Position numbers and translations under genes: made by a program. A stretch of 28,588 nt of DNA from the NCBI GenBank assembly GCA_964534625.1, contig CAZHRF010000041.1, forward strand, positions 1 through 28,588, written 5' to 3'. Origin of the DNA: an uncultured archaeon (lineage in GTDB: Archaea; Asgardarchaeota; Heimdallarchaeia; Heimdallarchaeales; Heimdallarchaeaceae). This document shows, piece by piece, positions 1 to 20,285 of this stretch. Under the pieces are notes generated by a model, which searched no databases, was not told where the DNA came from, and worked only from the letters and a program-made list of their open reading frames with translations. Positions within the stretch are counted from its first letter, which is position 1, and the number at the start of each line of letters is the position of its first letter.

Positions 1-456
1 AATAGGTTCAGTAAAGATTCTGTTGTCTCTATACTTGAACCATAGCTTAATTTTTGGTACTTTAATCTTCTTTTTCTTAAAATCTATCTTTACGTTGTTG
101 TTAACATTGTAGGTCGTAAAACTTTGACGAGGGTGTTTCTTGGACTTAAAATTGGGGTATCCCCGTGTTCCTTTGAAAAACTCTTTGAACGCCCGTTCTA
201 GGTGTATTCGTTCTTCTTGTAACGCCCTACTCCCCACGTCTTTCAGGAACGTATACGCTTGTTTATACTCCTTTTCTGTTTTATAGGTGTACTCGTACAG
301 TTCTTCTTTGTTGTCTTTTAGTTTTTCGTATATCTCTTTTCGTTCCGCTAGCATGTTATTCCATAGGAACCTACAACACCCGAAGGTCTTTATGAGCCTC
401 TGTTCTTGTTCTTTAGTGGGGTATATTCTCACCTTATATGCTCTGTTGACCTTCAT
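1..456 (-). CDS. tnpB: IS200/IS605-family RNA-guided endonuclease TnpB, N-terminal part (runs off the window edge)
   Basis: Not in the ORF track. Manual translation from ATG at 456 is open to position 1: MKVNRAYKVRIYPTKEQEQRLIKTFGCCRFLWNNMLAERKEIY...ALQEERIHLERAFKEFFKGTRGYPNFKSKKHPRQSFTT. This has the typical TnpB N-terminal HTH (YKxRIYPTxEQ, FGCxRFxWN) and GYPxFKSKK motifs. Confidence 0.95.
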   Translation of the reverse strand, partial: MKVNRAYKVRIYPTKEQEQRLIKTFGCCRFLWNNMLAERKEIYEKLKDNKEELYEYTYKTEKEYKQAYTFLKDVGSRALQEERIHLERAFKEFFKGTRGYPNFKSKKHPRQSFTTYNVNNNVKIDFKKKKIKVPKIKLWFKYRDNRIFTEPI

Positions 457-486
457 CTCATCCTTCTCTTAGTTTTTTTTCTTCAA

Positions 487-568
487 AAATGTTTGTATGC
501 TAAAACGTGTATTGTTTTTTCTTCTTTTCATCCCCACCCTCAAGGACGGGGTTTTCAAGAAGACGTTC
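487..568 (-). mobile_element. IS200/IS605 left end (subterminal hairpin plus promoter region); no tnpA between it and tnpB
   Basis: Minus strand reads GAACGTCTTCTTGAAAACCCCGTCCTTGAGGGTGGGGATGAAAAGAAG, an imperfect GC-rich hairpin upstream of tnpB. Positions 521-568 match 11228-11275 at 44/48 nt. Confidence 0.85.
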
Positions 569-648
569 AAATAAAAAAATTAATTAGTGTATATTTTGTC
601 ACTTCAAGTAACATTATCTATTTACATAAGAACATTGGAGTTGAAAAT

Positions 649-2760
649 GTGAGAAAGAGTATAAAAGTAATTTCGATTGCATTAATTGTTGGTATTGGTA
701 TAGTTGGTATTGGTATAGGTGTATTTTTTATACAGAAAATTAAGACGAGAGATGTTAACCCATTTAATATTGAGGATGCACCTCAGTATATAATAAAAGC
801 TAGGGATAATATAAAAGACAAATTAGATAATGGAACATTTTCATGGGCGGATATGGGTACGTTTATTACTTTTTCTCAGTATTTGGCAGATAACAGTCCA
901 ACTATTTTAGGATTGGTAAAGGGATGGACTGATTTGATCCTTTTTAATATCACAGGTATTGGGGATAACAAAGATATGTGGTTTATTACTGGCAATGATT
1001 CTCTTCTTGTAGAGGCAGGACAATATCCGTTTGATTCTTATGATATCTTAATATTACTTAGTTTTGATACATTTACTTCTATATTAAGACAAGATGCAAC
1101 CCCACTTTCAGCTTTTCAAGCAGGTAATTTGGATTTTGAAGGTAATTTCGATAAAGTGTTGAATGTAGCACAAATAGCTGAAATTGCAAGTGCCACAATT
1201 AACGATCAAACTATTGGTGCTGATACATCTGGTCCTTCATTTAATATAACAGAAAGCATATTGGGGTCGTATAAACCCGGTTTAACCATTGTTCCTAGTT
1301 TTGAAATAGGAATTGTACCCGACAGAATAGGGGAACACCACCAATCTATCATAAGATATGGCGAAACTTTTATTTTTGACCATCAAGGAAAAGTGATAGC
1401 CTCATTAGATGCTGCATCACACTCTGCATTTAAAGTGATAAACTCATCTACAATAGTTATGGGGGGTCAAGGGGGATATTTAGAGTTATGGAATTATAAA
1501 ACGGGAGTAATTGAACAATTAAGTGTTCCAGGTGGGCATCATGATTTTGACTATAATCCTGAAACTGACACATTTATGATTTTAGAATATCAATATACTG
1601 ATGAGACATGGAATGGGCAAGATGTAATCTATGACAAGATTGTTGAATATAGTCGTGATGGACAAATAATTTGGGAGTGGAAGGGTCAAACATATTATCC
1701 ATTCAACGAAACCAGATATATTAGGCTTGGTGTAAATCATACTTTTAGAGGGGGGATAGATTGGATGCATAGTAATAGTTTTGTCTGGGATAAAGCAAAC
1801 AATCATATTTATCTTAGTGTAAGAAACCTAAATAGCATTTTAAAAATTGATTATAATACAAAAGAAATTATGTATGAAGCAGGAGAATTTGGCAATTTTG
1901 CTTTATATGATAAAGATGGGAATGAAAAAGATACACATTGGAATTTTCCACATGGATTAAGAATGATAGATGAAAATACATTTTTGCTTTTTGATAATGA
2001 TCTCTATAATCGCTCCAATCCAGACACTATGAATCTTTCATTTTCTCAAGGACATTCGAGGTTTGTTGAATTTACTATTGATGAAGATTATAAAACAATG
2101 AATGAAACATGGTCATGGACACCTGATGATCCTGACTATTACTTCCCAGAATCTGGAGGTAATGCTATAAGATTACCTGGGGGTAATACTTTGGGTATCT
2201 TTAAAAATAAAGCTTTGGTGCTAAACATACCTGAACCTACATTATTAACTGAAGTTACCCCCACAGGAGAAATAGCTTGGGAATTTGAGATTGATGGAGA
2301 AAATGTTACTTATTATTGGAGTCAAAATATCGAAAGACTCTATGAAAGACCTATTATACAAATCAATAAACAAACACTAGATCTCGAAAGCGGTACTCTC
2401 TATGTTAATCTCTCTACTTGGAATAATTATCTTGAAGATGTTCCGTCAGATGCAACAGTAAAGGTAGTTACAGAAAGTGAAACAATTTATGAGTATGACT
2501 TTACTTTTGCTAAGAACTGGCAAGAAACACATCTGATCATAAATATAACAAGCCTGCCTACATTTGATAAGCTTAGTATTATTGTTGAAAACAAAGATGG
2601 TGTTGAAGGCGTTTTTGTGTTATATTCAAGCCCAAATACTGGTAAAGTGGGTTCAAGTAACATAGTAGTTAGTACAGCAAGCATATTGATTTCTCTTTCT
2701 ATGGTAACTATGGTCATGTTAAGAAAGAGAAAAAAACAAAAAAAACTCATAATAATATAA
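649..2760 (+). CDS. Membrane-anchored SCP2 lipid/sterol-binding domain + aryl-sulfate sulfotransferase (ASST-like beta-propeller) fusion
   Basis: Start is probably GTG at 649 (GGAG RBS upstream); the ORF extension to 406 overlaps tnpB and the IS end. N-terminal TM (IALIVGIGIVGIGIGVFFI); SCP2-like DILILLSFDTFTSILRQDATPLSAFQAGNLDFEGN; ASST His motifs GHHDF, DWMHSNS, FPHG, plus LLFDND and GNAIRLPGGNTL; C-terminal TM with a basic tail. Confidence 0.8.
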   Translation: MRKSIKVISIALIVGIGIVGIGIGVFFIQKIKTRDVNPFNIEDAPQYIIKARDNIKDKLDNGTFSWADMGTFITFSQYLADNSPTILGLVKGWTDLILFNITGIGDNKDMWFITGNDSLLVEAGQYPFDSYDILILLSFDTFTSILRQDATPLSAFQAGNLDFEGNFDKVLNVAQIAEIASATINDQTIGADTSGPSFNITESILGSYKPGLTIVPSFEIGIVPDRIGEHHQSIIRYGETFIFDHQGKVIASLDAASHSAFKVINSSTIVMGGQGGYLELWNYKTGVIEQLSVPGGHHDFDYNPETDTFMILEYQYTDETWNGQDVIYDKIVEYSRDGQIIWEWKGQTYYPFNETRYIRLGVNHTFRGGIDWMHSNSFVWDKANNHIYLSVRNLNSILKIDYNTKEIMYEAGEFGNFALYDKDGNEKDTHWNFPHGLRMIDENTFLLFDNDLYNRSNPDTMNLSFSQGHSRFVEFTIDEDYKTMNETWSWTPDDPDYYFPESGGNAIRLPGGNTLGIFKNKALVLNIPEPTLLTEVTPTGEIAWEFEIDGENVTYYWSQNIERLYERPIIQINKQTLDLESGTLYVNLSTWNNYLEDVPSDATVKVVTESETIYEYDFTFAKNWQETHLIINITSLPTFDKLSIIVENKDGVEGVFVLYSSPNTGKVGSSNIVVSTASILISLSMVTMVMLRKRKKQKKLIII

Positions 2761-2765
2761 CATTC

Positions 2766-2813
2766 TGAACGGAATAAGAGGAAATATGAACGGAATAAGA
2801 GGAAATATGAACG
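2766..2813 (+). repeat. 21-bp tandem repeat, about 2.3 copies (TGAACGGAATAAGAGGAAATA)
   Basis: Exact copies at 2766-2786 and 2787-2807, plus partial TGAACG. It duplicates the RBS and start region of the sulfotransferase. Confidence 0.95.
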
Positions 2814-3955
2814 CTCATAAACATTATAAAAGGTTGAAACGTTCCAAAAACAAACCATTTAAATTTCCCCTAGAAATGTATTATGTAGCAAAGTTTTTTG
2901 AAAATAATAAAGGATCCGCTTTAAAATTACATGAAATAGAAAATATCATTCTTAGAAACAAAATCAATAAAATAAAAATTGATCGCCCGATTTATGTAAC
3001 GGGACTTGCAAGGTCAGGAACAACTATAACAACAGAAATGTTAATGAAGCATTGTACTGTAGCTACTCACAAATACCTACACATGGTTATGCCTTATGTA
3101 CCATTTATCATTCAAAAACTGGCAAATATCGTACCCCTATTTGAAGATAAACTAGAACGACTACATCAAGATAGGATTGTAGTAGATAAAGAGAGCCCTG
3201 AAGCAGTAGAAGAATGGTTTTGGAAAGATTGGTTTAGTTCGATTTTTAGGGAAGAAAAAAGTAATATTTTCGATAACAAAGATACAAATAAGTCATTTGA
3301 AAGATTCTATAGGTATCATATTCGCAAGTTAATAATTAGTCAAAATGCTTCTAGATATGTTGTAAAAAACAATTACAATATAGCCAGAACGGAATATTTG
3401 CAAAAACTATTTCCAGATGCAAAATTTATCTTTCTAGTGCGAAATCCTATTAATCACATAGCATCATTAATAAAACAAGATTATCTGTTTTTAGAAATGC
3501 AAAGAAAGAATCCTAGGCTATTAGATTGGACAAAAATTATAGGACATAGAGAGTTTGGATCAGCAAAAGTAAGCATAAATTTGAATGACTATGAAACAAC
3601 AAAAAAAATTAGAGAAATGTGGGACAAGAAAGAAACCTACATTACTGGATGGGCTATCTATTGGAATTCAATATATTCGTATTTACACAAAAAGCTAGAT
3701 TCTAATAAACAACTTGCTCAATCATCTATCATAATTAAATACGAAGATATGTGCGGTAGATCAAAAGAAATTATAGAAAAAATTATTTCCCATACAGAAT
3801 TAAGTACAGATAAATATCAACATATAATGAAAGAGTACGCAAATAAGCTAAATAGACCCAAATATTACAAACACACTTTTACTGAAAAAGAGATTAACAC
3901 TATAAACAACTTAACAAAAGAAACAGCTAAAAAATTTGGATATATTTTATTTTAA
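2786..3955 (+). CDS. PAPS-dependent sulfotransferase (Sulfotransfer_3-like)
   Basis: PIYVTGLARSGTT (5'-PSB loop), FLVRNPINHIAS (3'-PB motif), IKYEDM, SPEAVEEWFW. Alternative in-frame ATG at 2807. Confidence 0.9.
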   Translation: MNGIRGNMNAHKHYKRLKRSKNKPFKFPLEMYYVAKFFENNKGSALKLHEIENIILRNKINKIKIDRPIYVTGLARSGTTITTEMLMKHCTVATHKYLHMVMPYVPFIIQKLANIVPLFEDKLERLHQDRIVVDKESPEAVEEWFWKDWFSSIFREEKSNIFDNKDTNKSFERFYRYHIRKLIISQNASRYVVKNNYNIARTEYLQKLFPDAKFIFLVRNPINHIASLIKQDYLFLEMQRKNPRLLDWTKIIGHREFGSAKVSINLNDYETTKKIREMWDKKETYITGWAIYWNSIYSYLHKKLDSNKQLAQSSIIIKYEDMCGRSKEIIEKIISHTELSTDKYQHIMKEYANKLNRPKYYKHTFTEKEINTINNLTKETAKKFGYILF

Positions 3956-4103
3956 AAATGGAGTAAAGGAGATAGCAAGTCAGTATTTGTGTTGATTTTT
4001 GATTAAGTTTACTTGTTGTACTATGTATTTTATCCTACGGGGATTATGGAAGTATTGGTTTTTCAGAAGAGAAGACAAGAGAAAAGGAAGAGATTACGCA
4101 TTC

Positions 4104-4781
4104 TTAGAGTAAAGCAATAGCCCTAATTAAATCTGCACAATCTTCAATTAAGTCGCTTGATCCTTCAATGTCTTTTATAGCATGATCTAGGATAATAAGA
4201 GCTCCAGCTGAATTATTTTCTGTCTTATTAATCATGTCATACTTAAGTTGTTTATAGATCCCATCTATGTCAGATTCTATTTTATCAACAAGTTTGATTT
4301 TTTTTCTGATTTTTTCCAACTCTGCATTAAGTACCAAATCAAAACTTTCAATAAAGGCTTGTGCTTGCTCAGAGAGGAGTGAAAAGATCTTTTTCATTTT
4401 AGCTTTGATGTCTATATGAAAGTCTTGATCAATTAGCAGGAGTAGATTGTCTGTCCCGCGTTTAATAGAACCTGCTGCTGTATCAGCGAGTTTGATGAAA
4501 GATAGCAAGTCATTACGTATGTATTTGGGCGTTTCTCCCGATGATAATTGATCAATAATTTCTGCTTCAATTTCATCAGCTATATCTTCTTCTTCTTTAA
4601 TTAAATTGAAAGAATTTTGTGCTGCTTCTTTATCTACTTCCAGCCAAAAATCAAAAAATATTTCTGCATTGTTAATGATGTGAACAATGTGAACTATATG
4701 TTCTCGAATACGTTCTAGAATCCTTGATTCTCTTCTCTTTTTTAACCATTCTCTTAAATTTCTTGTGCTCATTTTTTTCAC
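4104..4781 (-). CDS. DUF47 / PhoU-like transport regulator
   Basis: Two helical repeats with ExxAD...RxDL...AD and ExxxD...ExxSDxxEDxAD motifs. Overlaps the stop codon of the upstream ABC ATPase. Start is 4781 (GTG) or 4772 (ATG). Confidence 0.8.
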   Translation of the reverse strand: MKKMSTRNLREWLKKRRESRILERIREHIVHIVHIINNAEIFFDFWLEVDKEAAQNSFNLIKEEEDIADEIEAEIIDQLSSGETPKYIRNDLLSFIKLADTAAGSIKRGTDNLLLLIDQDFHIDIKAKMKKIFSLLSEQAQAFIESFDLVLNAELEKIRKKIKLVDKIESDIDGIYKQLKYDMINKTENNSAGALIILDHAIKDIEGSSDLIEDCADLIRAIALL

Positions 4782-5893
4782 TCTTGTTTTATTATTTTAT
4801 TTAATTCTGATTGATTGTGCAAAAACAACCTGTAATCATCTTTATCAGTAGCAAAAAGTACCTGATCCCCTATTTTTTTAGGGAAGTTTTTGCCTATTAA
4901 TTCTCTCCCCTTAATAATTATTCCATTGACATCTACATGAAATTCATAGAAATCTCCTATACACTTAATATCCATAAGTTTTGCTGATAAAACATTATCA
5001 TAACTTATTTTTTCTTTTTCTGTAATAGCATAAATATCTACCAGTTCAGCAGGGAGAAGTGAAATAACTTTTGTACTTTGATCATATTCTGTTTCTACTG
5101 CAATTTTTGTCCCATTATCTAGTTCAAGATATTTTTTCCTCGTGTTTTTTTCCATACTAATTACCCCTTCTAAAACTGTTGATTCGGTAAGGAAATTAGC
5201 TATATACAATGATTTAGGATTATTATATACTTCTTTTGGCGTCCCAATTTGTACAATTTGTCCTTCATTAAAAACAGCTATTTTATCTGCAACTCTCATT
5301 GCTTCTCTGGTGTCATGGGTGGCATGGATACATGTTATACCTAAATCTTTGACTAGTTTTCGTAATTCGATTTGCAATTTTTCTCTTATTTTCGCATCTA
5401 ATGCTCTAAGAGGATCGTCCATGATTAATACTCTGGGATTAGCATTAATAGCCCTTGCAAGTGCAACACGTTGTTTTTGTCCTCCACTAATCTCTGAAGG
5501 GAAACTCTCTTCTTTACCATCAATATTTAGTAGATGTAGAAGTTCATTACTAATAGCTTTTGAATCGTCTATATCTAACTGTTTGACCATTGGTCCAAAT
5601 AACAGATTTGATTCAACATTTAGATGTGGAAAAAGATTGTATTCTTCGAAGACAAAGCCTATCTCTCGATCCTCAGCAGGAATACTAGTTACATCTTGAG
5701 AATCAAAGTAAATTTTACCTGCAGTAGGAGAAATTAAACCCGCAAGTAAATACATGGTAGTTGTTTTACCCGCTCCTGTTGGTCCTAAAACAGCCAAATA
5801 TTCTCCATCACCTATTTCAAGAGAAATATTATCTATAGCTTTAATTTCTCCTCCATAAACCTTTGTTAAATTTTCTAATGTTATATATACCAT
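4778..5893 (-). CDS. ABC importer ATP-binding subunit (PotA/CysA/MalK class), degenerate Walker B and Q-loop
   Basis: Walker A GPTGAGKT, Q-loop GFVFEEY (E for Q), signature ISGGQKQR, Walker B LIMDDP (D for E), H-loop ATHD, TOBE-like C-terminus. Confidence 0.93.
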   Translation of the reverse strand: MVYITLENLTKVYGGEIKAIDNISLEIGDGEYLAVLGPTGAGKTTTMYLLAGLISPTAGKIYFDSQDVTSIPAEDREIGFVFEEYNLFPHLNVESNLLFGPMVKQLDIDDSKAISNELLHLLNIDGKEESFPSEISGGQKQRVALARAINANPRVLIMDDPLRALDAKIREKLQIELRKLVKDLGITCIHATHDTREAMRVADKIAVFNEGQIVQIGTPKEVYNNPKSLYIANFLTESTVLEGVISMEKNTRKKYLELDNGTKIAVETEYDQSTKVISLLPAELVDIYAITEKEKISYDNVLSAKLMDIKCIGDFYEFHVDVNGIIIKGRELIGKNFPKKIGDQVLFATDKDDYRLFLHNQSELNKIIKQE

Positions 5894-5898
5894 ATAGA

Positions 5899-7017
5899 TT
5901 ACATCTCCAAAGCAGATTGAAGGCCTTCTTCAGGAAAGTGATAACAACGTGTGTAATATGGATTGATTTTAACGTTGATTTTTTCACCAATTGAAAATTG
6001 CAAAGGATTCTTCGAATGAATTTTGGCCTCAATTATTTGTTGATTCTCTAATTTAACTTGAATTCTTCGATACAAACCTAAAAATCTGTCTGAAAGAATT
6101 GTACCTTGAATAGAGTTATTACTATCTTCTAAATTGGTTTGCTGATTACTAATTTTCTTTACATCAAAAAACTCTCTTCTGATTGCGATTAAGATTCTTC
6201 TCCCTTTTTCAATACCCGCATTATGGGCTTGGATAGTAGACAGTCCCACTCTTATCTTTGCAAATCTTTTACTGTCATCTAAGACAACACCTGTAATAAA
6301 ATCTGATTCTCCAACAAAAAATGAACTAAAAACATGAGTAGGATAGTAGACCAAATCTTCTGGGGTTCCTATTTGGATTAGTTTGCCTTTATTCATAACT
6401 ATTACTCGATCACTAATTGACAGAGCCTCCGCTTGGTCATGAGTTACATGTATAGCTGTTAACCCTTCTTTTTTCACTAAATCTCGGAGGAAATTTTGAA
6501 ATTCTTCACGAACTTTCTGATCAAGAGCACCAATAGGTTCATCGAGGAGTAAAATTTTTGATTGAGACGCAAGAACTCTGGCTAAAGCTGCCTTTTGCAG
6601 CTCAGGTGCAGACAAATCTTTAGAAAAATTCTCTGCACGATTAGTTAAATTCACCCGTTTAAGTGCATCTTCAACAAGTGATTCTACTTCATTCTCAGAT
6701 TTTCCTCGCACTCGGGGACCATAGGCTACATTATCCCATATAGGCATGTGTGGGAAAATAGCGAAGTGTTGAAAAACAAATCCAACATGTCGATCTTGTA
6801 TCGTGATATCGTGCATAGGTTGATTATCAAAGAAGATTTTCCCATGCGTGGGTAAAATTATTCCCGCTATTAAACGTAACGTACTGGTTTTTCCGCATCC
6901 AGAAGGACCAATAAAAGTGACATATTCCCCATCTTCAATAATGCAACTAAAATCATCTACTGCTCGTACTTTATTATCATATATTTTTGTAACATGGTCT
7001 AAACGTATTTCTGGCAT
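5899..7017 (-). CDS. ABC importer ATP-binding subunit (PotA/CysA/MalK class), degenerate signature motif
   Basis: Start is likely ATG 7017 (MPEIRLDHV), just after the permease stop. Walker A GPSGCGKT, Q-loop VFQH, signature LSAPE (instead of LSGGQ), Walker B LLLDEP, H-loop VTHD. Confidence 0.93.
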   Translation of the reverse strand: MPEIRLDHVTKIYDNKVRAVDDFSCIIEDGEYVTFIGPSGCGKTSTLRLIAGIILPTHGKIFFDNQPMHDITIQDRHVGFVFQHFAIFPHMPIWDNVAYGPRVRGKSENEVESLVEDALKRVNLTNRAENFSKDLSAPELQKAALARVLASQSKILLLDEPIGALDQKVREEFQNFLRDLVKKEGLTAIHVTHDQAEALSISDRVIVMNKGKLIQIGTPEDLVYYPTHVFSSFFVGESDFITGVVLDDSKRFAKIRVGLSTIQAHNAGIEKGRRILIAIRREFFDVKKISNQQTNLEDSNNSIQGTILSDRFLGLYRRIQVKLENQQIIEAKIHSKNPLQFSIGEKINVKINPYYTRCYHFPEEGLQSALEM

Positions 7018-7018
7018 G

Positions 7019-8767
7019 TCAATCATCTGAACGTGAAGAGAGTAAACGAAGGGCAACAAGTAACAAGAATGAAATCACAATAAGTATCATTGCAGAGAAA
7101 GCTGCAGCAGGGAATATTGAAGATTCAAAAAAATCTACAATCAGCACAGGAATAGTTCTTTCCATGCCCATACAAATAATCGTAGCACCTGTTTCACTCA
7201 TTGAACGTGTAAAGGTCATTATCGAAGCTGCGATGAGTCCATTAAATAAAAATGGTAAAGTAATTTTCCTAAATGTTGATACTTTTGATGCGCCGAAAGC
7301 AAAGGACGCCTCGTCATACATTTTTGGAATGGATTCGAATGCACCTACTAAAGGTTTGACGCAGAAGGGATACGTAAAAGACAGATGTGCCATAATAATC
7401 ATCCAAAACCCTGGAGACATAAGATTGAGACCATTTGAGCCCCAAAGGAAAAAGATACTAAAACCTAAAGCAGAACTAGGAATAACTAAAGGGACATCAA
7501 CCAGCGCTTCAAGCGTATTGCGTATTTTTTCGTTTTTTGATTTGACAATATACAGTGCCATGGGTGTAGCAATAATGAGATTTAATATTGTAACTATTAG
7601 TGCTATTTCGGTTGAGGTAACAAGAGCATGAATAATTTCATCTAATTTTTTATCTGGGGCATGGAAAACTTGATAGATCATCCCTTGTTCGAATTCGCCT
7701 GTGAAGGGAGATTTTCCCCACCATTGAAAAAGAAAAATGATCACAAATAAAGCAGGTATAAAAACAAAAAGTAAAAATAACCCCATAGCAATGACATTTC
7801 GGCTAATAACCACTTTTTTTGAACTGAGCTTACGCTCAAATTGGGGGAAAATTTTCTTCCATGGCAGTCCTACTTTTCTTGCAAAAAGTCTAACAGAGGT
7901 TAGCAAAGTTAAACTAATTAAAATAAGTATTAAAGCTAAGAAAGCTGTAGTTGGGATCTTAAGGCTCTTCATCCAGCTAACAATAACAACAGGAGCAGTT
8001 TGATATACTCCAGCAACAATTAATGTGGCACCTGTTTCACCTAACGATCGCGTGAAAGCTAAAACCGTACCTGCCAATAAGCTTTCTTTTACAAGAGGTA
8101 GAGAAATCAATTTAAATATAGTAAAAGGTGGAGCACCTAAAGTCTGAGCTGCTTTTTCAAGATTAACATCAAGATCATCAATTATGGCTTTAACTGAGCG
8201 AGTTACATAAGGGAAACTAAAAGCTATATGTGTTAATATAATCAGTATAGGACCTTGACTGATTAAACCGACCTCTGAGTTAATTAAACGGCTGATGCCA
8301 TTGTTTGTTCCCCAAAATAAATAGATGCTAAAACCTAATGCAGAAGTTGGAACTGCCATCGGAAGATCAACTAATGTGTCAAGGAGATTTTTACCTTTAA
8401 AGTTATATCTGGCCAAAATCCACGCAATTGGGACTCCAACAAGAAGATCAAAAATTGTTACTATGGCAGCAATTTGAAGCGATAACAGAATAGACCTCAT
8501 CATTATCTTAAAAGCTTGATTGCCTAAAATAGGATCGTTGAAAACTTCTGTCATAATTTCTGACCAATTGAGGAGAATTGTAGATAATAAATATAAAATA
8601 GGTCCTAAAACTATAAGAATAAACATACCTACCGTAATTATTTTTCCTGCTTTTACAACTGTGTCAGTAGAAAGAAATCGCTCTATTGAAAGAATAGTTG
8701 TTCTTATTCGTTGCTCTACTTGATCAAATCTGTTTAGAGGATGGTCTTTTTCTGTCTTAGTAGTCAT
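7019..8767 (-). CDS. ABC permease with two fused BPD_transp_1 domains (CysT/CysW/ModB/FbpB-like)
   Basis: Duplicated motifs DLPMAVPTSALG / DVPLVIPSSALG, EAA loops LEKAAQTLGA / YDEASFAFGA, RSLGETGAT / RSMSETGAT. AGGAG RBS precedes ATG 8767. Confidence 0.9.
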   Translation of the reverse strand: MTTKTEKDHPLNRFDQVEQRIRTTILSIERFLSTDTVVKAGKIITVGMFILIVLGPILYLLSTILLNWSEIMTEVFNDPILGNQAFKIMMRSILLSLQIAAIVTIFDLLVGVPIAWILARYNFKGKNLLDTLVDLPMAVPTSALGFSIYLFWGTNNGISRLINSEVGLISQGPILIILTHIAFSFPYVTRSVKAIIDDLDVNLEKAAQTLGAPPFTIFKLISLPLVKESLLAGTVLAFTRSLGETGATLIVAGVYQTAPVVIVSWMKSLKIPTTAFLALILILISLTLLTSVRLFARKVGLPWKKIFPQFERKLSSKKVVISRNVIAMGLFLLFVFIPALFVIIFLFQWWGKSPFTGEFEQGMIYQVFHAPDKKLDEIIHALVTSTEIALIVTILNLIIATPMALYIVKSKNEKIRNTLEALVDVPLVIPSSALGFSIFFLWGSNGLNLMSPGFWMIIMAHLSFTYPFCVKPLVGAFESIPKMYDEASFAFGASKVSTFRKITLPFLFNGLIAASIMTFTRSMSETGATIICMGMERTIPVLIVDFFESSIFPAAAFSAMILIVISFLLLVALRLLSSRSDD

Positions 8768-10019
8768 GTTTATCTCTCCTTTTCTTGTATACACTAGTTA
8801 GAATAATTAAACTACTAATAACTAATAATGGTGAATAATTATAGTTTACTTGAAAATAATCTGAATCTTTTTGACTATCTAATGTTTCAGCCCTTGTTTT
8901 AACCCAAACATCTGGGATCCTATCTAAAACTTCTCCACTAGAGGGTACACCAAATCTGGGAACGGTAATATTGATTGAAACCCCAAGGTCTGAATCAAAT
9001 ACTTCATTCATTTTTAATTGGATATCATGATCATTAAGAAGCGTTTCATTTCCCGGACGAAAACCATAATCCATAGCTTGTAATTGTCTTTCTTTAGAAA
9101 GCAAGAATTCTTTGAATTCTCTAGCTGCTAATAATTGTTTCTCTGATACCCAAGTAGCATCAAAAATAACCAATGGATGATCGGACCAAAGAGTACCTTC
9201 ATCTGGATACACAGCAACTATTTTCTCTCCCCATTTTGCTTCAGCTTCACCATCTTTGGCTGTTTCCATAATTAGACTTTCATAGACAATAATAACATTT
9301 AAACCCGAAGGACCTAAATTTGCAGCCTGTTTAGCCAAAAAACCTGTAGAACTCCCATAGAGAACAGCAGCAGATTCTACTTGTCTCACCCATTCTTGGA
9401 CAGTTTGATTCTCTAAATCGTCCATAATAATATCTTGAGGTTTTTTGTTAGCTGCAGCAGCAATTTTTAATAATACTGCCATATAACCAGAATTTGATTC
9501 TTGTGCTGAAGTATGAGCAAGTCTTAAATCTGTTTTGGATAACTCATAAAGATCTTGCCATGAAGATAAGTTGTGGTCTTGAATGTAGCTCTCCCATGTT
9601 CCAATAACTATGGGAGAAGAAACTAAGGTTGAAGATGCATTAATATCAATTATAGTTGTATCAAATTTTTGTTTCCAAGCATAATCAAAAAGAGGAAGCC
9701 AAACACTTGATGCTGGACTCCAAATAACTGGTTTCGATTCGCCACTCAAAATAGAAATCATAGATGTGCGCGTACCTGTAACTTCAAACCGCAATCGTAC
9801 ATCTAAACCAGGATTGCGAGATTGAAACCAAGGAGAAAAATCATTAGCAATAGAATTAATCCATCCACGCTTTTCACTTGTGTAAAGAATGTGAAGATCA
9901 ATTCTGTCTTCTTGTCTGGTAAAAACATCTCGCCTAATACAATCTAAAGTGATAATTGTAAGAATTAGAAAGGATACAAGTAATATACCACGAAGTCTTT
10001 TGAACAAACTTTTCTTCAT
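8757..10019 (-). CDS. Extracellular solute-binding protein with N- and C-terminal TM anchors
   Basis: SEKRGW, PVIWSPASSVW, SPIVI, HTSAQESNSG, SSTGFL, VYPDEGTLWSDHP, GFRPG. These resemble the SBP family often fused to vWA domains. First gene of the ABC operon. Confidence 0.85.
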   Translation of the reverse strand: MKKSLFKRLRGILLVSFLILTIITLDCIRRDVFTRQEDRIDLHILYTSEKRGWINSIANDFSPWFQSRNPGLDVRLRFEVTGTRTSMISILSGESKPVIWSPASSVWLPLFDYAWKQKFDTTIIDINASSTLVSSPIVIGTWESYIQDHNLSSWQDLYELSKTDLRLAHTSAQESNSGYMAVLLKIAAAANKKPQDIIMDDLENQTVQEWVRQVESAAVLYGSSTGFLAKQAANLGPSGLNVIIVYESLIMETAKDGEAEAKWGEKIVAVYPDEGTLWSDHPLVIFDATWVSEKQLLAAREFKEFLLSKERQLQAMDYGFRPGNETLLNDHDIQLKMNEVFDSDLGVSINITVPRFGVPSSGEVLDRIPDVWVKTRAETLDSQKDSDYFQVNYNYSPLLVISSLIILTSVYKKRRDKHDY

Positions 10020-10093
10020 TATGCGGTAAAAAGAAAGCACCTATATAAAATCTAAGGTGAAATAAAAAATAGCTCCATAAAGACTATATATAA

Positions 10094-10160
10094 ATGAACT
10101 AGCCCCCCCTCAAGAAGTGGATTTTCTGGCTAGGTAAGATAAAAGAAGAAAATGAAGATA
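10094..10160 (-). mobile_element. Short IS605-type right-end remnant, family B copy 1
   Basis: Minus strand CCTAGCCAGAAAATCCACTTCTTGAGGGGGGGCTAGTTCAT: a hairpin followed by TAGTTCA. Shares ATGAACTA...TTCTGGCTAGG with 22879-22918. Confidence 0.6.
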
Positions 10161-10194
10161 AGAAGTTCTTATAGCGCAATTATAGCTAATAGAA

Positions 10195-11043
10195 TCATTT
10201 CAAATACTCAAGCATTGCTTTTGCACCTTGAGCAGCTGATACCAATAATTGAAAGGTTTTATACGCTTCTACCATACTTTCTGCCATATATTCAATTGTT
10301 AAACCATCTAAACGAATAGAATTAGGTAGAAATTCTGCAATGTCAGCTAAATGGCTGGATTGAAAAGTTATAGTCATCTTGATAGGTTTATCAACGACTA
10401 AGGCTTTAACTTCATGATTATGAAAATTTTTAATTGCATTACGTGTTCCTTGTTGTAGTTTTTCTTTTATTAACTGCATACTCGGGCTTATAGCAGAAAG
10501 GCGACTAAATGAATGTTTAAAAGAAACTCGTTCAGCCCACGGAGCAAAAGGTTCTACATCGTCTATAAGGAGTCTTTCATCACCAGCGACAAGAATAACA
10601 GGAATATCATATTCACCAGCTGTATAAGCATTGAGAAGAAACTCACTAACAGGAACACCATTAACTAAAACTTGATGGATGGTTCCACCACTATACGTGT
10701 GATCAAATGTAGATCTGGCTGTACCAAATTTGGCATGATAACCTAAAAACAATGCAGCATCACAGTTTTCTATACCCGCTACCATGCTAATAGGGCGGGG
10801 ATTCCCTCTTACAATCTGACAATACTTGGGTAAGTTGTCGATTTCAATATTGACCATCGGTCCATGACTATCAGCAATTATAATTTCATCAAAACCATTA
10901 TCATGTAATGTTTCTGCAGTAAGATAGGTAACTTGAGTTGCAATTTTTCGTGCTTCTTTGTATAAAGAACCCTTCAAACTTAAATGAGCTGGTACAACAA
11001 CGTGAGGTAAACCTTCAAGATCCACAGATATAAATGCTTTCAA
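10195..11043 (-). CDS. dppA: D-aminopeptidase, peptidase family M55
   Basis: FISVDLEG, ADSHG, FLGYHA, DHTYS, VILVAGD motifs. TTG start with GGTGA RBS. Confidence 0.93.
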   Translation of the reverse strand: MKAFISVDLEGLPHVVVPAHLSLKGSLYKEARKIATQVTYLTAETLHDNGFDEIIIADSHGPMVNIEIDNLPKYCQIVRGNPRPISMVAGIENCDAALFLGYHAKFGTARSTFDHTYSGGTIHQVLVNGVPVSEFLLNAYTAGEYDIPVILVAGDERLLIDDVEPFAPWAERVSFKHSFSRLSAISPSMQLIKEKLQQGTRNAIKNFHNHEVKALVVDKPIKMTITFQSSHLADIAEFLPNSIRLDGLTIEYMAESMVEAYKTFQLLVSAAQGAKAMLEYLK

Positions 11044-11402: not shown

Positions 11403-14381
11403 ATGAAATCATTCTATTTGAAGAAAAAATCAAATATTATTATGGGATTGGTGATTGTAATTTTAATTACAGTTATCAGTTTTCGAACTCTGTTTGCTTT
11501 TCCCAATGCTACAGACTCTATTACTATTAAAAATGCCACAGATATTCCAATTATTGGTATTCCCACTACTTCACCTGGCTCTCCAAGTACAAATGAAACC
11601 ACTATAATTTCGTGCCCAATTAATGATCCTGATGGTGTCAAGAATGCTACATTATTTTGGCAATATTCATCAATCAATTCGACCATATTTAATACTTCAA
11701 TGGTTGAAAGTGATATACTAATTCTTGATACGACAGAGTTTAATCGTACTGGATATATTACTTCAACGGGAGTAGAGACAACTGATAGTACCGAAAGAAA
11801 ATTTGGCGAATTTATGTATACATCTGCTGGCGAATCAGCACTTAATAAGATTGATACAAGTATTAATCGACCAGGTCCAACAAGTCTGATCTATGTGAGA
11901 ATTGAAGGAAAAAATATATCAACCAATGAATGGGAAATACTAGTTGAAGAAGGTTCATATGCCTCAACTACCGATTTAAGTGCAGTTAATTATGTTAATG
12001 ATGTAGATCTATTTCTTGGCTACAAAATTTATGCAGTAACTTACAGATCGGAACCTCAAGACCCATTACAACCAAATATCGACAAATTAGAACTATACCA
12101 ACAAGTATATTCTGCTGATATTCCTGGTGCTTCAGGTCCTTCAAAAATTGATTATTATGTAACTAGTTATAATAATTTAAACGAGTCAACAACGAGCGAG
12201 ACCTATTCATTTCTTATGGATTATCAACCAATAGTACAAATTCATAATCCCCCTTCTGTATTGGCAGGAGATGGCAATATACACACGTTAAATGTGTCTG
12301 TAACAGATTTAGATGGAGTTTACTATATTAACAATAATAGCGTGATCCTATATTATAGGATCGAAGAAAAAGAAACATGGTCCAGTATAACCTTAATAAA
12401 ACAAGAGGATGGATCTCATAATCTAACGACGGTCTATTTCGAAGGCAATATTTCTGGTAATCTTGAAGATTCTGTAACCACTACGTTATATCTTCAAGTA
12501 AATGCCACAAACTTGCTCTATGATTATACTACTGGAAGAACAGGTTATTCAGCTATCGAAGAAGTTATACTTGATAGTTTACATCCGCAAGTAGCTAAAA
12601 TAGAATTAGATGGGGATTATTCAGCTATTGGTTTAGAAAACATTACAACAATAGATACTAATATTACTGTAATAGCTAATTTTACCGATCCAAGTGGTAT
12701 AAAAGAAGCAAATATCTACTATGCTATGCCAAACACAACAGAATTTATTAAACTAGCAATGGTTAATACAACAAATATTTTACCTGAAGAAATTTCGTTA
12801 ATTTTTAATGCGACTCTACCTTACACTAATGAAACAATGTTTGTTGAGTATTTCTTTGAGACCGAAGATTTCCTTGGGAATAGAGGAAACACAAGTGTAA
12901 ATTGGTACTATGCTGATGGAGAAGCCCCCGTTATATCTGCTCTACGTATTTATCCTGATTATATTGCTAACTTTACAGAAGTTGCTATTTTATTTAATGC
13001 TACTGACTTTTCTGAATTTCAAGATGGGTTACTCTGGTATTCATTTGACGAAGAGACGTGGATGAACAAGGTAGTTGAGGCTATTGATTATGATCTGTTC
13101 GTAGACTACAATGAAATATTCGCTGCTGCTAATTTGCCTTATCTAATCGAAGATAATACGACGCGTTCAGTTTATTTATATGTGGCAAGGAATGGTAAGG
13201 TTGACACAGCAGTATTAAATGTTGACATAACACATGAAAACCCAACTGATTTAAGAATCTGGTTAAAAACTCAAGATGGAAGAGAATTTCTGATTTATGA
13301 TCGTTCACCTAATACTAATAGTTTTAACATAGAAGTTGATATGATCAAACTAGGATTAACACAGAAGGATTTTACTTCGATGAACTTCACCCTACGAATG
13401 ACCGATTATTCAGAGTACTATTCTGGGATGTTAACAGCGTTTAATATTCAGCTAAAACATCATAGTATCCCCCTAGGCTATCAATTTTTAGAAACCATTC
13501 CCCAGTCAGTAAATGATACTGATGTTCAATTCTATTTGACTTTAACAGACCAACTAGGAAACGTAGCCAATTCAAGCATATACACGTATTATGCAGATGG
13601 CATGGTTCCTAATATCACCCTTTCTAATATTAGTTCTCCATTAAATGTTGAAGGTGCTAGATATGTTACAATTACAGCTGAAATAATTGATCGTTCTGGC
13701 ATAAATGGAGCTGAATTATATTACAAGTATAAAGAGAAAGACAATTGGATTATTCTTTCTATGAATTATAATTCTAGTTTAGGGCAATATTATGCCAATG
13801 TTCCTCTTATTAATGAATCCGGAACGATTTACTATAAAGTACGTGCATTTGACATGGTTGGTTTTGTAGCTGAAACTAATATGACGAGTTTTGAGCATGA
13901 AAGAGGACTTGCCCCGATAATTGAACTAGTTGATGTGCCTTATCCTTCACCTTATGATCTAGAAGGAAATAAGACTATAACTATACGAGCCAATATTACA
14001 GATAATAGTAATTTTACAGCTACACTATACTACAGATTTGAAGAAAAAGAAGGATGGACTCAAATCCTTATGAAACTTGATCCAGAAACAGGATTATATT
14101 ATGCTATAGTTGAGATAGAACAAAGTGAAGGAATTCTATACTTCAAAATATCTGCAATTGATGAATCTGATTTGGAAACGGAAACTGATCTGATTGTTAT
14201 TGAATATATTAATGGAGGGAAGACTGTTAATCCCCTAGTATATATTATTGGGGGCGCTATCGGAGGCACACTCGCCCTAACTGGTTTAATCGTAGTTCTA
14301 ATTAAGAAAGGTATGTTCAAAAAATTAAAAGGCAATCCTTCTACTAAATCTAAATCCAGCTTTAAATCAAAAACACCTTAA
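11403..14381 (+). CDS. Large cell-surface glycoprotein: about six Ig/Fn3-like modules, an inserted proprotein-convertase P-domain, C-terminal TM
   Basis: Signal/TM at the N-terminus. Recurring (I/V/F)xDxxG(V/I)xxAxLYY ... Y(Y/F)xxxxDxxGN modules. P-domain pattern VDITHENPTDLRIWL...FTLRMTD...GMLTAFNIQL. Many N-x-S/T sequons. C-terminal TM followed by a Lys-rich tail. Confidence 0.75.
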   Translation: MKSFYLKKKSNIIMGLVIVILITVISFRTLFAFPNATDSITIKNATDIPIIGIPTTSPGSPSTNETTIISCPINDPDGVKNATLFWQYSSINSTIFNTSMVESDILILDTTEFNRTGYITSTGVETTDSTERKFGEFMYTSAGESALNKIDTSINRPGPTSLIYVRIEGKNISTNEWEILVEEGSYASTTDLSAVNYVNDVDLFLGYKIYAVTYRSEPQDPLQPNIDKLELYQQVYSADIPGASGPSKIDYYVTSYNNLNESTTSETYSFLMDYQPIVQIHNPPSVLAGDGNIHTLNVSVTDLDGVYYINNNSVILYYRIEEKETWSSITLIKQEDGSHNLTTVYFEGNISGNLEDSVTTTLYLQVNATNLLYDYTTGRTGYSAIEEVILDSLHPQVAKIELDGDYSAIGLENITTIDTNITVIANFTDPSGIKEANIYYAMPNTTEFIKLAMVNTTNILPEEISLIFNATLPYTNETMFVEYFFETEDFLGNRGNTSVNWYYADGEAPVISALRIYPDYIANFTEVAILFNATDFSEFQDGLLWYSFDEETWMNKVVEAIDYDLFVDYNEIFAAANLPYLIEDNTTRSVYLYVARNGKVDTAVLNVDITHENPTDLRIWLKTQDGREFLIYDRSPNTNSFNIEVDMIKLGLTQKDFTSMNFTLRMTDYSEYYSGMLTAFNIQLKHHSIPLGYQFLETIPQSVNDTDVQFYLTLTDQLGNVANSSIYTYYADGMVPNITLSNISSPLNVEGARYVTITAEIIDRSGINGAELYYKYKEKDNWIILSMNYNSSLGQYYANVPLINESGTIYYKVRAFDMVGFVAETNMTSFEHERGLAPIIELVDVPYPSPYDLEGNKTITIRANITDNSNFTATLYYRFEEKEGWTQILMKLDPETGLYYAIVEIEQSEGILYFKISAIDESDLETETDLIVIEYINGGKTVNPLVYIIGGAIGGTLALTGLIVVLIKKGMFKKLKGNPSTKSKSSFKSKTP

Positions 14382-16362: not shown

Positions 16363-19300
16363 TACCGAAAAATAGAGAAGGGAGAAAGATGTAACGGAGT
16401 CATGAAAGTAATTACTAAAATAGACAATACAAAACAAGGTGAACCTGAACAAGCAAAAGAGTATAAAGACAAAGTAAAGGAATTAGTTAAAACATTTAAA
16501 AGTATCACCAAGGAGATGAAAACGGAAGGAATATATGGTTCAAAGATATATCAACAATTTGAGAACATAATAAAGGCGGAGGGGGATGGAAAAAGATTAT
16601 CAAAGATATAGAAGATGCTAATCCTGGTCTTGGAAATTTCTTTAGAGATATACAAGTAAAGATGTTTCAACAAATGGATCTTGCACCTAAGAATCTTGGT
16701 CCTAAATATGCAGAACATGAACAAAAAGTAATAGAATTTATTCATGCCATGTTAATTCTAAACAATGATCCAGTTAAAGATGGATTAATAGAGAATGCTC
16801 AAAGAGAAGTAAATAACCAATTTGATGCGAATGGCAGAGTTTTAACTACTTTATCTTCATGGTTAAAAATGGTTATTGATGAACAAGGGAAGGTTACAGA
16901 TATAGTTTTTAGAGATGGAAACGAAAAGAACTTTGACGGAGAAAATGCTGATTCAGTAAAAGTTGAGGATTTATTTAGAAATTATGATAAAGTAAGAGAA
17001 GAAAGTAGTGTGACAGGAGCAGATGCAGTTACCATAGGTGAAATGGTATATAGATATGTAGATGCAGATGGAGCGATTAAATATGCTTCTTTCAAATGTT
17101 TTGTACAAGAAGAAATGAAACATTATTGGTCAAAATACCAACCAACAATTAAAACATCTAATTTGATAACAGAAGATAGAATAGCAGATACAAAATCTAT
17201 TGAGGTTTTAAGAGATATAGGCCTGTTTAGTGACCAAACTATAAAACGTTACAATGGAATAACAGATGACGTAATAGAGAAAAAATATGAAGTGGTTAAA
17301 ACGTATCAAACACCTGGAGGAGGAGTAATAAATGTCCGTAATGTTATTGAAACATTCCAGAAAGCATATAATATTTATCCCGATGACGAAGGAACATATC
17401 TAACCGCGAGTGAATTTCTTAACAAACTAACTATTCGTGGGAATGAATTAGGGGTTGATCTTGTAACAACTTTTAAAAAAGCAATAATGGAAGCTAACAT
17501 AAAAGCCATGTGGCAAGGTGAGGTGGCTCTAAAAACAGATGAAAATGGATTGGTGATTATTGACGGTACGTTGTTTAGTATAAAATCAGAAAAGGATTCA
17601 CTTGGAAATTTCGATAAAAGAACAATAGATTTAGATACACCTACAAATACCAAGGCAGAAGAGTATGTTGCATATACCCAAATATTTGGAGGGTTGAAAA
17701 ATAAAGATGGCCAAACGATAGATATAGATGATGATAGTGTAAAATTATCTCAATATTCTATGTTTTACAAAGAAAAAATGAATGGAGAAAATGCAGAAAT
17801 AACAACATCTAATGTTATTACTTTAAAAATAGGAGACGAAACATATTATGCAAGTCCTGCAATATTTTATAATGAAAAACACAAGAATTTCTATACTCTT
17901 ACTCCCGATGGAAGTGTCATTGAAGCAGATAACTTTAAAGAACTAAAAGAAGCGATAGAAAACTATCTTACAAATGAAAATATTTTAACTATAGAAGATT
18001 TCTATACTAAAGGGTTGTTACTTAGTTCTTTAGTATGCGAAGAAGCTGGTTTTACTCTGAAAGGACATGTCAATTTGGCTTTATATCGGTTACAACAATT
18101 AGTACTTCATGGAGGTGAACTAAATACATTTGGAGAAAAAAATTCTAGGATAACTATTCATAATAGTATAAAAAACGCAAACCAACATCTTCCACTTGAT
18201 ATAGCTTATCTAAATTCGTTTTTGGTAAATAGAAATACATATAGAGATCTTAGAACTACTGTCAAGAAGTATACTGATGGATGTACAGAACATTATATGA
18301 AATATAAACGATTACAAACGGGATTATTGAAGACAGAAGAATGGGACAGTATAAAAATTGGCGATGAGGAATGGAGAGCATTGATGGGAGGAGTGGATAT
18401 GGTACACATGAATGCAGGATTAGGGTTGTTAACACCAGAAGGGTTATCCGAAACAGAACATAGATTTTCTCCATGGGGAGCCGAGTATAGGAAGAGTTTA
18501 AATGACATCATGAACGATAAAAACACTAATTGGAAAAATTTAGGTATAGCAGAGCAAGCATCGAATAGGTTAATAGATCTTATGGCCAGATATGTGACAG
18601 ACGGAACGATGAAAAGAAGAATAATAGGTATAACAAGTGGCAAAGAAAGTCTAGTTGATAAGAAATTTGTAGAAGTGGGAAAAAGTAAAAAGATAGATTT
18701 AGGTAATGATGAAACAATAAATATATATGATATAGCTAACTTAAAAGAGGTTTTCCCCAAAATAGATAATGGGAAGTTGAAATATGAAACAAGAATAGAT
18801 GGGTATTATATGTATATTACTGCTGAGCACGATGGAAATGTTTTATATCTAAAAGGGAGTGAACTAAAACATGTACAATTTATTGAAACGTATATAGACA
18901 AATATAAAGAAGTTAAAGAGGGGAATGTAGAGGACTTTAAAACTTGGTTAAATGAACCATGTGGATTCAATCAAGAGCATACCAATAAAGATTATGTCTT
19001 GCTTATAGATGAAGCAATAAGAAGAGCAACAGGTGAGGATAAAGTGCAAACGGGAGTAGTTATAAAAGATGAAAGAGGTCTTCCTAGGGCACCTTATCTA
19101 CCAATAGGAATGTTAAAATACGGTGATATGACCTATTTGAAGCTAAAAAGTAATGCTAAAAGTTTGTTAGACCAGATGTTTATTAAAGATATAGATGTCT
19201 TTTACACGCAGTCATCGAGTAATATGAAAGGGGAATTACGGGCTAATGTCTTGAAAAAATATACGGGAATAATAATTGATCCACAAGATAGTGGGACAAA

Positions 19301-20285
19301 GTATAAAGAAGATTTAGAAGAAGCGTTTACTAAACATATTAAAAATAATCCTATGACAGTGATAAACCAAGAACCTGGGTTGAAAATGATTTTAGAACAA
19401 AAATATCCTAACAAGCAGACTTTTACTTGGGAAGATGTGATAAAAGTTACTGAAGAAATAAGCGGTCAATCATCAACAAGTCATGGAAGGTTTGATTTCA
19501 ATTTGATAAATAACTATGACCGCCATGAAACCTTCAGTGGTACTTTTGACAATACAGTTGCACGAATAATCATTGCAGATTTTACTATGCGAATGTACGA
19601 ACTGTTTACAGATTATGGGAGATATCAACCAATAACAGAAGAAGCAGATAGGTTCAACGCAAAAAGAAATAAGGATTATTCTTGGGTTTTAACCGACAGT
19701 ACGAAATATAAAGATTATAAACAAGTGTTTGATGAAGTAAGACTTTGGAAACACAAACAAACTCAAGAAAAAATAGATAAGGGACAAAAGATCGACCAGC
19801 AAGATGTCTTACAAGCGAGTGATATTGATACATATATAAAGGAAATGGGGTATACGGACAAGAATATACAGTACGATATTTTAATAGGTATTCAAGATAT
19901 TTTAAACAATGAAAAAATGAGTTCGCTTAAAGGTCAAGGTGATGATAGATACGAGAGATCAGAGTCTGAAAAAGTTCAACGTGCTCTTTATCAATATGTA
20001 AAAGCACAAATAGCTATTGATGAAATAGGGTTAATAGGTAAGAAAGAGTTGGCTAAGTTTTTAAGTGCGTATATGGTAGGAAGAGCATGGCAAACAGTAA
20101 TGGAAATAGGGAAACAAGCCCATAGGGTAAGTTTTGGTTCGGATATAGGGAAACTTTTACGTGCCCAGTTAAAGCATATAATATCGACTGATAGTGAGGC
20201 TAAATATATTGATTCACTCACTGCACAACATTTCTGGCATGCATTTAATATAGAAAGTTATACAAATGCAAGGAGAAAAGATTAA
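16363..20285 (+). pseudogene. 5'-truncated, frameshifted giant hypothetical protein (ORFs 16402-16611 and 16662-20285 probably one gene)
   Basis: The first frame is open from 16363, directly at the IS-like junction. The second frame is open from about 16562 (GGGWKKIIKDIEDANPGLGNFFRDIQVKM). Adding one base in the G5/A5 runs at 16581-16594 joins them. No recognisable domain. Confidence 0.6.

Follow-up and report, generated by a model that had tools for sequence, protein, structure and literature searches.

A doubly anchored SCP2-arylsulfotransferase fusion conserved beside a PAPS-type sulfotransferase in Asgard archaea: a possible two-step sulfation relay

We analyzed a stretch of 28,588 nucleotides from an uncultured archaeon of the Heimdallarchaeaceae (assembly GCA_964534625.1, contig CAZHRF010000041.1, positions 1 to 28,588, hereafter the window), in which two adjacent genes encode sulfotransferases of different kinds. 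The first, gene A, encodes a sterol carrier protein 2 (SCP2) domain fused to an arylsulfate sulfotransferase (ASST) and is predicted to sit at the cell surface. The second, gene B, encodes a predicted cytoplasmic sulfotransferase (ST) of the type that uses 3'-phosphoadenosine 5'-phosphosulfate (PAPS). The two genes have been inherited together in Asgard archaea of the Heimdall, Hod, Hermod, and Thor types. By analogy with the Cpz enzymes of caprazamycin biosynthesis, we propose that the two proteins form a membrane-spanning, Cpz-like two-step sulfation relay, in which the SCP2 domain would hold a lipophilic sulfate donor, and we put the probability of this reading at about 45%. None of the components is new in itself, nor is the principle of a relay; the novelty lies in a predicted extracellular, doubly anchored SCP2-ASST paired with a cytoplasmic PAPS enzyme.

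Gene A gave two Pfam matches above cut-off within a single frame of 703 codons, PF05935 (Arylsulfotrans, 102.7 bits versus 24.2, residues 238-510) and PF02036 (SCP2, 29.9 bits versus 21.3, residues 77-177). The fusion that an earlier note on this DNA had proposed is therefore real. No NCBIfam model matched gene A, and searching the PDB sequences with the single sequence returned no match; the family profile alone reached solved structures, Cpz4 with E 9e-9 and Escherichia coli AssT with E 2e-4. The order was the same by fold. An AlphaFold2 (AF2) model was built on the 27-sequence family alignment, with a mean predicted local distance difference test score (pLDDT) of 83.5 and a predicted template modelling score (pTM) of 0.80. 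It laid out a transmembrane (TM) helix at residues 3-29, an alpha/beta domain at 40-190, a beta-propeller at 197-565, an eight-stranded sandwich at 569-660, and a second TM helix. The top Foldseek match of the model was Cpz4 (9kf4, E 3.6e-21), followed by E. coli AssT (3elq, 3ett, and 4p04, E ~1e-14), and ranks 1-11 were all one or the other (E 3.6e-21 to 9e-14, template modelling score on the target 0.47-0.58).

The catalytic residues of the propeller were conserved as well. Among the 27 family sequences, H298, H374, R392, and H435 were invariant and N376 nearly so; S502, also counted in the catalytic set, was likewise invariant or nearly invariant. H374, N376, R392, and H435 aligned with H356, N358, R374, and H436 of E. 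coli AssT, and the His/His/Arg/His set also aligned with Cpz4 (9kf4/9kf6), the equivalence of H298 with E. coli His252 coming from the Cpz4 alignment only. In the E. coli enzyme, His436 is the catalytic sulfo-histidine, and His252, His356, Asn358, and Arg374 bind the sulfuryl group (PMC13426309). ASSTs proceed by a ping-pong mechanism via this sulfo-histidine and need aryl-type sulfate donors (PMC13426309). Judged by alignment and model, the gene A propeller is thus an ASST with a complete sulfo-histidine catalytic set, and PAPS-independent transfer is predicted. The HHD, WMHSN, and PH motifs listed in the earlier note were all recovered (Table 1). With AssT of E. coli CFT073 (3elq, 3ets, 3ett, 4p04), gene A shares the Pfam family, the six-bladed propeller, and a location outside the cytoplasm, which for gene A is a prediction. 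AssT, however, carries an N-terminal beta-sandwich and is a soluble dimer that needs a disulfide made by DsbL/DsbI, whereas the gene A protein contains no cysteine, has the SCP2 domain in the N-terminal position, and is predicted to be tethered to the membrane.

The N-terminal domain modelled as SCP2; had it failed to do so, the earlier note would have regarded its own reading as refuted. Folded alone, it reached a pLDDT of 90.3, and its top 46 Foldseek matches in the PDB were all SCP2 proteins or domains (template modelling score on the target 0.55-0.71), including yeast and human SCP2, MFE-2 SCP-2L, UbiJ, and the alkylsulfatases SdsA1, Pisa1, and SdsAP. The family profile also reached SCP2 structures at the level of sequence (4jgx, E 1.4e-5; 4uei, E 1.8e-4), and about half of the gene A homologues carried a precomputed PF02036 match. 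The presence of this domain, placed by the earlier note at about positions 900-1200, was confirmed; the extent given there was somewhat too small, the model assigning it 766-1218. Among the best 150 matches of the SCP2-domain profile in 1.84 billion representative proteins, the sole fusion to an ASST was gene A's own family (P0198). The other long matches were fused to an acyl-CoA ligase, SDR/MaoC, an enoate reductase, a 2-hydroxyacid dehydrogenase, or an aldolase. Among the papers listed by a literature search combining SCP2 and ASST terms, none paired the two. SCP2 is a general lipid-binding fold, and the gene A domain is a putative lipid binder on the strength of its profile matches and model.

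The predicted topology places both the propeller and the SCP2 domain on the outside of the cell, in a protein tethered at both ends. This prediction comes from the hydrophobic end segments, the basic C-terminal tail, and an excess of sequons. Hydrophobic segments were found at both ends in 26 of 26 full-length family members, the 27th (P0037) being truncated at its N-terminus and without the first segment, and a C-terminal hydrophobic window followed by a basic tail was present in all 27 aligned members. The ectodomain contains 13 N-X-S/T sequons, against 6.5 +/- 2.2 expected from shuffles. The C-terminus resembled the LPXTG anchor model only below threshold (E 0.32). Gene B, which follows after the 25-nt gap that had been reported, showed no hydrophobic or TM segment and is predicted to be cytoplasmic. 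Hydrophobic-segment analysis thus agrees with the earlier suggestion of double anchoring and of two enzymes on opposite sides of the membrane.

By its motifs and predicted location, gene B is a cytoplasmic PAPS-type ST. It matched Sulfotransfer_3 (PF13469) with 72.1 bits versus a cut-off of 27, and PF00685 with 23.7 bits; in NCBIfam, just a far sub-threshold match to NoeE was obtained. R76, G78, T79, T80, R219, and S227 of its PAPS-binding motifs, the 5'-phosphosulfate-binding (5'-PSB) loop and the 3'-phosphate-binding (3'-PB) motif, were invariant in 27 sequences. The best match of the gene B family profile among solved structures was to the tyrosylprotein sulfotransferases TPST1/2 (5wrj, 3ap1; E 3e-9), enzymes that make an aryl sulfate, Tyr-O-sulfate. 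Because this match covers the two PAPS motifs only and the acceptor-binding regions do not align, the acceptor of gene B is not readable from its sequence. TPSTs are also lumenal, unlike gene B. As for the supply of PAPS, a single 586-aa frame on contig C45 of the genome encodes a fused ATP sulfurylase (325 bits) and adenosine 5'-phosphosulfate kinase (208 bits). A NIR_SIR sulfite reductase was not found in the assembly, which is ~90% complete. A fused Sat-CysC with no NIR_SIR found fits PAPS being made for sulfation.

We then considered how widely the two genes are kept together. Gene A had ~57 full-length relatives at 40-51% identity, and all the named ones came from Asgard metagenome-assembled genomes (Heimdall, Hod, Hermod, Odin, Thor, 'Promethearchaeota'). 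Gene B had more than 120 relatives at ~50% identity, likewise Asgard wherever named. An ST adjoined the SCP2-ASST in 20 of 42 related loci, and in the orthologue group that contains the window protein, it was adjacent in 18 of the 19 loci with enough flank. The two genes are thus co-conserved, in support of the pairing made in the earlier note. Three arrangements were observed: the ST precedes the SCP2-ASST on the same strand, diverges from it, or, as in the window, lies downstream. Since gene order varies, the adjacency of ST and SCP2-ASST has outlasted rearrangement. The trees of the STs and of the ASSTs grouped the loci alike. The latter was a quick maximum-likelihood tree (IQ-TREE), from which we disregarded the row L026_3755 as a non-homologous long branch. 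In this tree, most loci without an ST fell into two derived paralogue clades of Thor type, whose neighbours are different. In one of them (L025, L027, L030, L035, L040, L041), genes for a PadR regulator and for a monooxygenase of the FAD_binding_3, aromatic hydroxylase type come after the SCP2-ASST; the other lies beside a PALP enzyme and a phosphodiesterase. In the complete Heimdall chromosome CP070695.1 (L036), the ST-adjacent SCP2-ASST is a 538-aa frame covering query residues 1-479, and this truncated copy may be a pseudogene.

A survey of 400 Asgard species genomes placed the SCP2-ASST (domain-profile score of at least 100 bits, frames of ~700 aa) in 38 genomes confined to four families, with none in the largest family. 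ASSTs of any kind are more common, being present in 104 of the 400 genomes and in 26 of the 30 from the window's own family, many with at least four matches. They fall into size classes of ~530, 700, and 1050 aa, and most are not beside an ST; only the SCP2-bearing type has kept the ST as a neighbour. In four loci (L012, L023, L024, L029), the SCP2-ASST has sat and/or cysC no more than a few kb away. This linkage is notable for a PAPS-independent enzyme. A literature search for Asgard together with sulfotransferase found nothing relevant.

Caprazamycin biosynthesis in Streptomyces sp. MK730-62F2 is the one characterised system that encodes a PAPS enzyme and an ASST together. As summarized in PMC4257720 (citing Tang et al. 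2013, doi 10.1038/nchembio.1310), the PAPS-dependent Cpz8 sulfates pyrones made by the type III polyketide synthase (PKS) Cpz6, and Cpz4 takes the sulfate from the phenolic esters made by Cpz8. The acceptor of Cpz4 is a sugar hydroxyl (PMC13426309). The Asgard locus resembles this system in having a PAPS-dependent ST gene beside a PAPS-independent ASST gene, in the rank of Cpz4 as the best solved match of its propeller by both profile and fold, and in the presence of a type III PKS, which is encoded elsewhere in the window genome and beside the pair in two relatives. Yet Cpz4 is a soluble enzyme of 472 aa from secondary metabolism and only ~15% identical to gene A, whose product is predicted to be extracellular and doubly anchored, with an SCP2 domain and a C-terminal sandwich in addition, and whose donor would have to cross the membrane. 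The PKS differs too: the pair in the window has none linked to it, and about half of the genomes with the pair lack one.

Starting from the domains, catalytic residues, predicted topology, PAPS supply, and conserved linkage described above, we infer a carrier, its passage across the membrane, a role for the SCP2 domain, and an acceptor as follows. In the cytoplasm, gene B would sulfate a lipophilic phenolic or pyrone-type carrier with PAPS; in this genome, the carrier would most likely be the product of the type III PKS. The sulfated carrier would then arrive at the outer leaflet, where the SCP2 domain would take its alkyl tail and offer the aryl-sulfate head to the propeller. His435 would be transiently sulfated in a ping-pong reaction, and the sulfo group would pass to an extracellular acceptor, probably a hydroxyl of a surface glycan or glycoprotein. 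Because ASSTs require aryl-type sulfate donors, an extracellular ASST needs a donor to be supplied. A membrane-crossing version of the Cpz scheme fits a Cpz4-like ASST linked to a PAPS enzyme, the linkage to PAPS synthesis and to a PKS in some genomes, and the lipid-binding domain predicted close to the membrane. Phenolic substrates would also fit the PadR regulator and aromatic-type FAD monooxygenase found beside one paralogue clade of the SCP2-ASST. The earlier note had likewise imagined a relay acting on hydrophobic substrates; that idea gains a precedent in the passage from Cpz8 to Cpz4. The coupling of the two enzymes is not universal (see below).

The candidate gene for the carrier deserves closer description. 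The only type III PKS of the genome is on contig C70 (L048, 6458-7564, minus strand), divergent from a 1058-aa ASST paralogue without SCP2, the two genes together occupying 6458-10979. In one relative (L011), the ST, the SCP2-ASST, a PKS 74% identical to that of the window genome, and a second ASST are contiguous; in another (L006), the order is PKS, ST, large ASST, SCP2-ASST. Among the 400 genomes, 21 encode a type III PKS. Of these, 17 (18 if a copy truncated at a contig end is included) belong to the 38 genomes with an SCP2-ASST, compared with 3-4 that belong to the 362 lacking it; such counts are descriptive and overstate independence, since the genomes are related. Separately, the last ~230 residues of the 1058-aa ASST were homologous to a stand-alone 290-aa membrane protein with no Pfam family, which comes after the SCP2-ASST in L017, L019, L022, and L034. 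In L070, L051, L054, L055, and L060, small matches to the large ASST's C-terminus proved to be a shared C-terminal domain only.

Several observations weigh against the relay. The PKS adjoins the pair in L006 and L011 only; in 15 further genomes, the PKS lay elsewhere, away from any ASST or ST. A PKS is missing from about half of the genomes that carry the pair (present in 17 of 34, or in 17-18 of 38 by the 400-genome survey), and in family f5 the pair is present while a PKS was found in 0 of 22 genomes, including some that are 93-99% complete. The relatedness of the genomes, mentioned above, further weakens the co-occurrence. When all open reading frames (ORFs) of the 42 loci were clustered in search of a third conserved neighbour such as a flippase, an exporter, or a carrier synthase, the ST was the only widely conserved one, so that no conserved flippase or exporter accompanies the pair in these loci. 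The other clusters occurred in at most seven loci and were lineage-specific (TPR, Hsp90, PadR with the FAD monooxygenase, PALP with the phosphodiesterase). Finally, ST orthologues at 42-49% identity exist in 86 of the 400 genomes, among them 53 of the 135 genomes of family f20, where no SCP2-ASST occurs, and genomes of family f17. In 12 such f20/f17 loci (L081-L092), no ASST lay within 8 kb of the ST, and most of the genomes had no ASST at all. There the ST stands between paired B12-binding radical SAM enzymes, and several clusters add genes for a GT2 glycosyltransferase, a polysaccharide deacetylase, a UDP-galactopyranose mutase, a hexapeptide transferase, a LuxE-like protein, and an SDR. STs lodged in glycan clusters without an ASST indicate that the ST-ASST coupling is not universal, and from this gene context the ancestral acceptor of the ST family may have been a glycan rather than a carrier. 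The f20/f17-type STs form a separate clade (98% support), and if the relay holds, carrier sulfation would be a trait of the ASST-linked ST clade.

These same observations feed the best-surviving alternative, which we consider rather unlikely. The two enzymes might work in parallel: the ST would sulfate a cytoplasmic glycan or lipid-linked glycan precursor, the SCP2-ASST would sulfate membrane-proximal lipids or glycans outside using environmental aryl sulfates, and the genes would be linked only through decorating the same envelope component. Besides the glycan clusters of f20 and the pair-bearing genomes without a PKS, the expansion of ASSTs, most of them not beside an ST, speaks in its favour, as do the seven Sulfotransfer_3 matches in the window genome. 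It is less at ease with an ST neighbour that is kept by the SCP2-bearing ASST alone and across three arrangements, with PAPS-synthesis genes linked in four loci to a PAPS-independent enzyme, and with a PKS that co-occurs and is sometimes adjacent. Dependence on environmental aryl sulfates is, moreover, hard to square with so conserved an operon.

A catabolic or detoxifying role appears improbable. In such a scenario, the SCP2-ASST would capture sulfated or phenolic lipids of the sediment and move or release their sulfate, a neighbouring oxyanion transporter would import the sulfate, and the ST would detoxify imported phenols. The likeness of the SCP2 domain to those of SdsA1, Pisa1, and SdsAP (2cfu, 2yhe, 4nur; Foldseek E ~1e-5, root-mean-square deviation 3.0-3.5 A over ~120 residues) is in line with it. 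These are extracytoplasmic enzymes acting on hydrophobic sulfate esters, and the SCP2 domain of SdsA1 recruits alkyl sulfates. They differ from gene A, however, in being hydrolases of the metallo-beta-lactamase fold, with a C-terminal SCP2 domain and no PAPS enzyme as partner. ASSTs do have a side activity as aryl-sulfatases, water then serving as the acceptor (PMC13426309), and the PadR regulator and aromatic monooxygenase beside one paralogue clade hint, by gene context, at phenolic substrates. Still, the catalytic set is that of the transferase family, no sulfatase is linked, and the links with PAPS-synthesis genes and with a biosynthetic PKS indicate anabolism. An ABC transporter operon of CysT/ModB type does lie directly downstream of the pair in the window (4104-10040, minus strand). 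Its five genes encode a binding protein of SBP_bac_11 type, a fused double permease of 591 aa, two ATPases, and a protein resembling DUF47/PhoU; the permease passes the ModB/Mo_ABC_porter cut-offs and resembles CysT/CysW, so the operon could be a sulfate or molybdate importer. As a sulfate-uptake partner of the pair it was rejected, being beside the pair in none of the 42 related loci.

The weakest alternative, sulfation or desulfation of a sterol-like or isoprenoid lipid with a bearing on the origin of eukaryotic sterol handling, was raised in the earlier note and looks highly implausible: the domain does match the sterol carrier protein 2 fold and archaeal membranes are isoprenoid, so that an isoprenoid ligand is conceivable, but SCP2 domains bind many lipids, the nearest other fusions are acyl-CoA and fatty-acid enzymes, and neither the window nor the 42 loci hold a linked sterol or isoprenoid gene or any specific similarity, the linked candidate carrier gene being that of a type III PKS. 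With a general lipid fold, acyl-lipid fusions, and a PKS as the linked candidate, there is no foundation for the suggested bearing on how sterol handling arose, and the patchy distribution of the fusion among Asgard genomes does not suggest an ancestral trait handed to eukaryotes.

The features of the locus are collected in Table 1. The GTG start of gene A at 649 is preceded by GGAG ~9 nt upstream, and 26 homologues have N-termini that line up with it from residue 1-2 onwards; longer frames from 406 or 493 were rejected, as they had no homologue support.

Table 1. Positions of the features of gene A and gene B in the window
Feature	Positions	Strand	Description and basis
Gene A	649..2760	+	703-aa SCP2-ASST surface protein (predicted); GTG start, TAA stop; ORF, Pfam, homologues, AF2
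N-terminal TM helix, residues 7-28	667..732	+	Signal anchor or uncleaved signal; hydrophobic window, AF2 helix 3-29
SCP2-fold lipid-binding domain (putative), residues 40-190	766..1218	+	PF02036, family profile, AF2, Foldseek
ASST beta-propeller, residues 197-565	1237..2343	+	PF05935, Foldseek, conserved catalytic residues
GGHHD motif, residues 295-299 (H298)	1531-1545	+	Gene A sequence
DWMHSN motif, residues 371-376 (H374, N376)	1759-1776	+	Gene A sequence
R392	1819-1830	+	Gene A catalytic set
FPHG motif, residues 433-436 (H435)	1945-1956	+	Gene A sequence
S502	2149-2163	+	Gene A catalytic set
C-terminal all-beta (Ig-like) sandwich, residues 569-660	2353..2628	+	8 strands, pLDDT >90; no Pfam family
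C-terminal TM helix (residues 668-691) and basic cytoplasmic tail RKRKKQKK	2650..2757	+	Hydrophobic window
Intergenic spacer, 25 nt	2761..2785	+	GAGG Shine-Dalgarno-like motif; sequence
Gene B	2786..3955	+	389-aa cytoplasmic PAPS-type ST (predicted); PF13469, PF00685
5'-PSB loop GLARSGTT of gene B	3002-3025	+	PAPS motif; sequence
3'-PB motif VRNPINHIAS of gene B	3437-3466	+	PAPS motif; family form RNPxxHxxS; sequence

No terminator-like site was found across positions 400-4200, the junction of the two genes included. Given this and the short spacer, co-transcription of gene A and gene B is probable. At the junction (2768-2810), a 21-nt unit, AACGGAATAAGAGGAAATATG, is tandemly duplicated, which yields two in-frame ATG starts for gene B, at 2786 and 2807, each with its own GAGG. 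Either could be the true start, since alignment with the homologues begins only at about residue 13-15. Directly upstream of gene A (1-456, minus strand) lies the N-terminal part of an IS605-type OrfB/TnpB (HTH_OrfB_IS605, 79.7 bits), running off the start of the contig. Given this adjoining fragment, the unusual order of the window, with the ST downstream of the ASST, may reflect a local rearrangement. Farther along the window, two large ORFs on the plus strand, of 992 aa (11403-14381) and 1207 aa (16662-20285), had no Pfam or NCBIfam match; the second falls within a region of strongly positive GC and AT skew at 16-21 kb.

Natural donors and roles are unknown for nearly all ASSTs (PMC13426309), and sulfation outside the prokaryotic cytoplasm, where PAPS is absent, is an open problem on which the pair may bear. 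As a tentative proposal that goes further than the relay itself, some Asgard archaea might bring activated sulfate out of the cell on a lipophilic aryl-sulfate carrier of their own making, which the SCP2 domain of the surface ASST would extract for sulfation of the envelope. This hypothesis is testable with three recombinant proteins, namely the PKS, the ST, and the ASST ectodomain. If true, it would be a prokaryotic, carrier-based counterpart of Golgi PAPS transport and the first physiological role of an ASST outside antibiotic biosynthesis, adding a membrane-crossing form of the caprazamycin-type two-step sulfation. Such a relay would let a cell without a Golgi-type PAPS transporter sulfate its surface, and would thereby explain sulfated surfaces in these relatives of eukaryotes.

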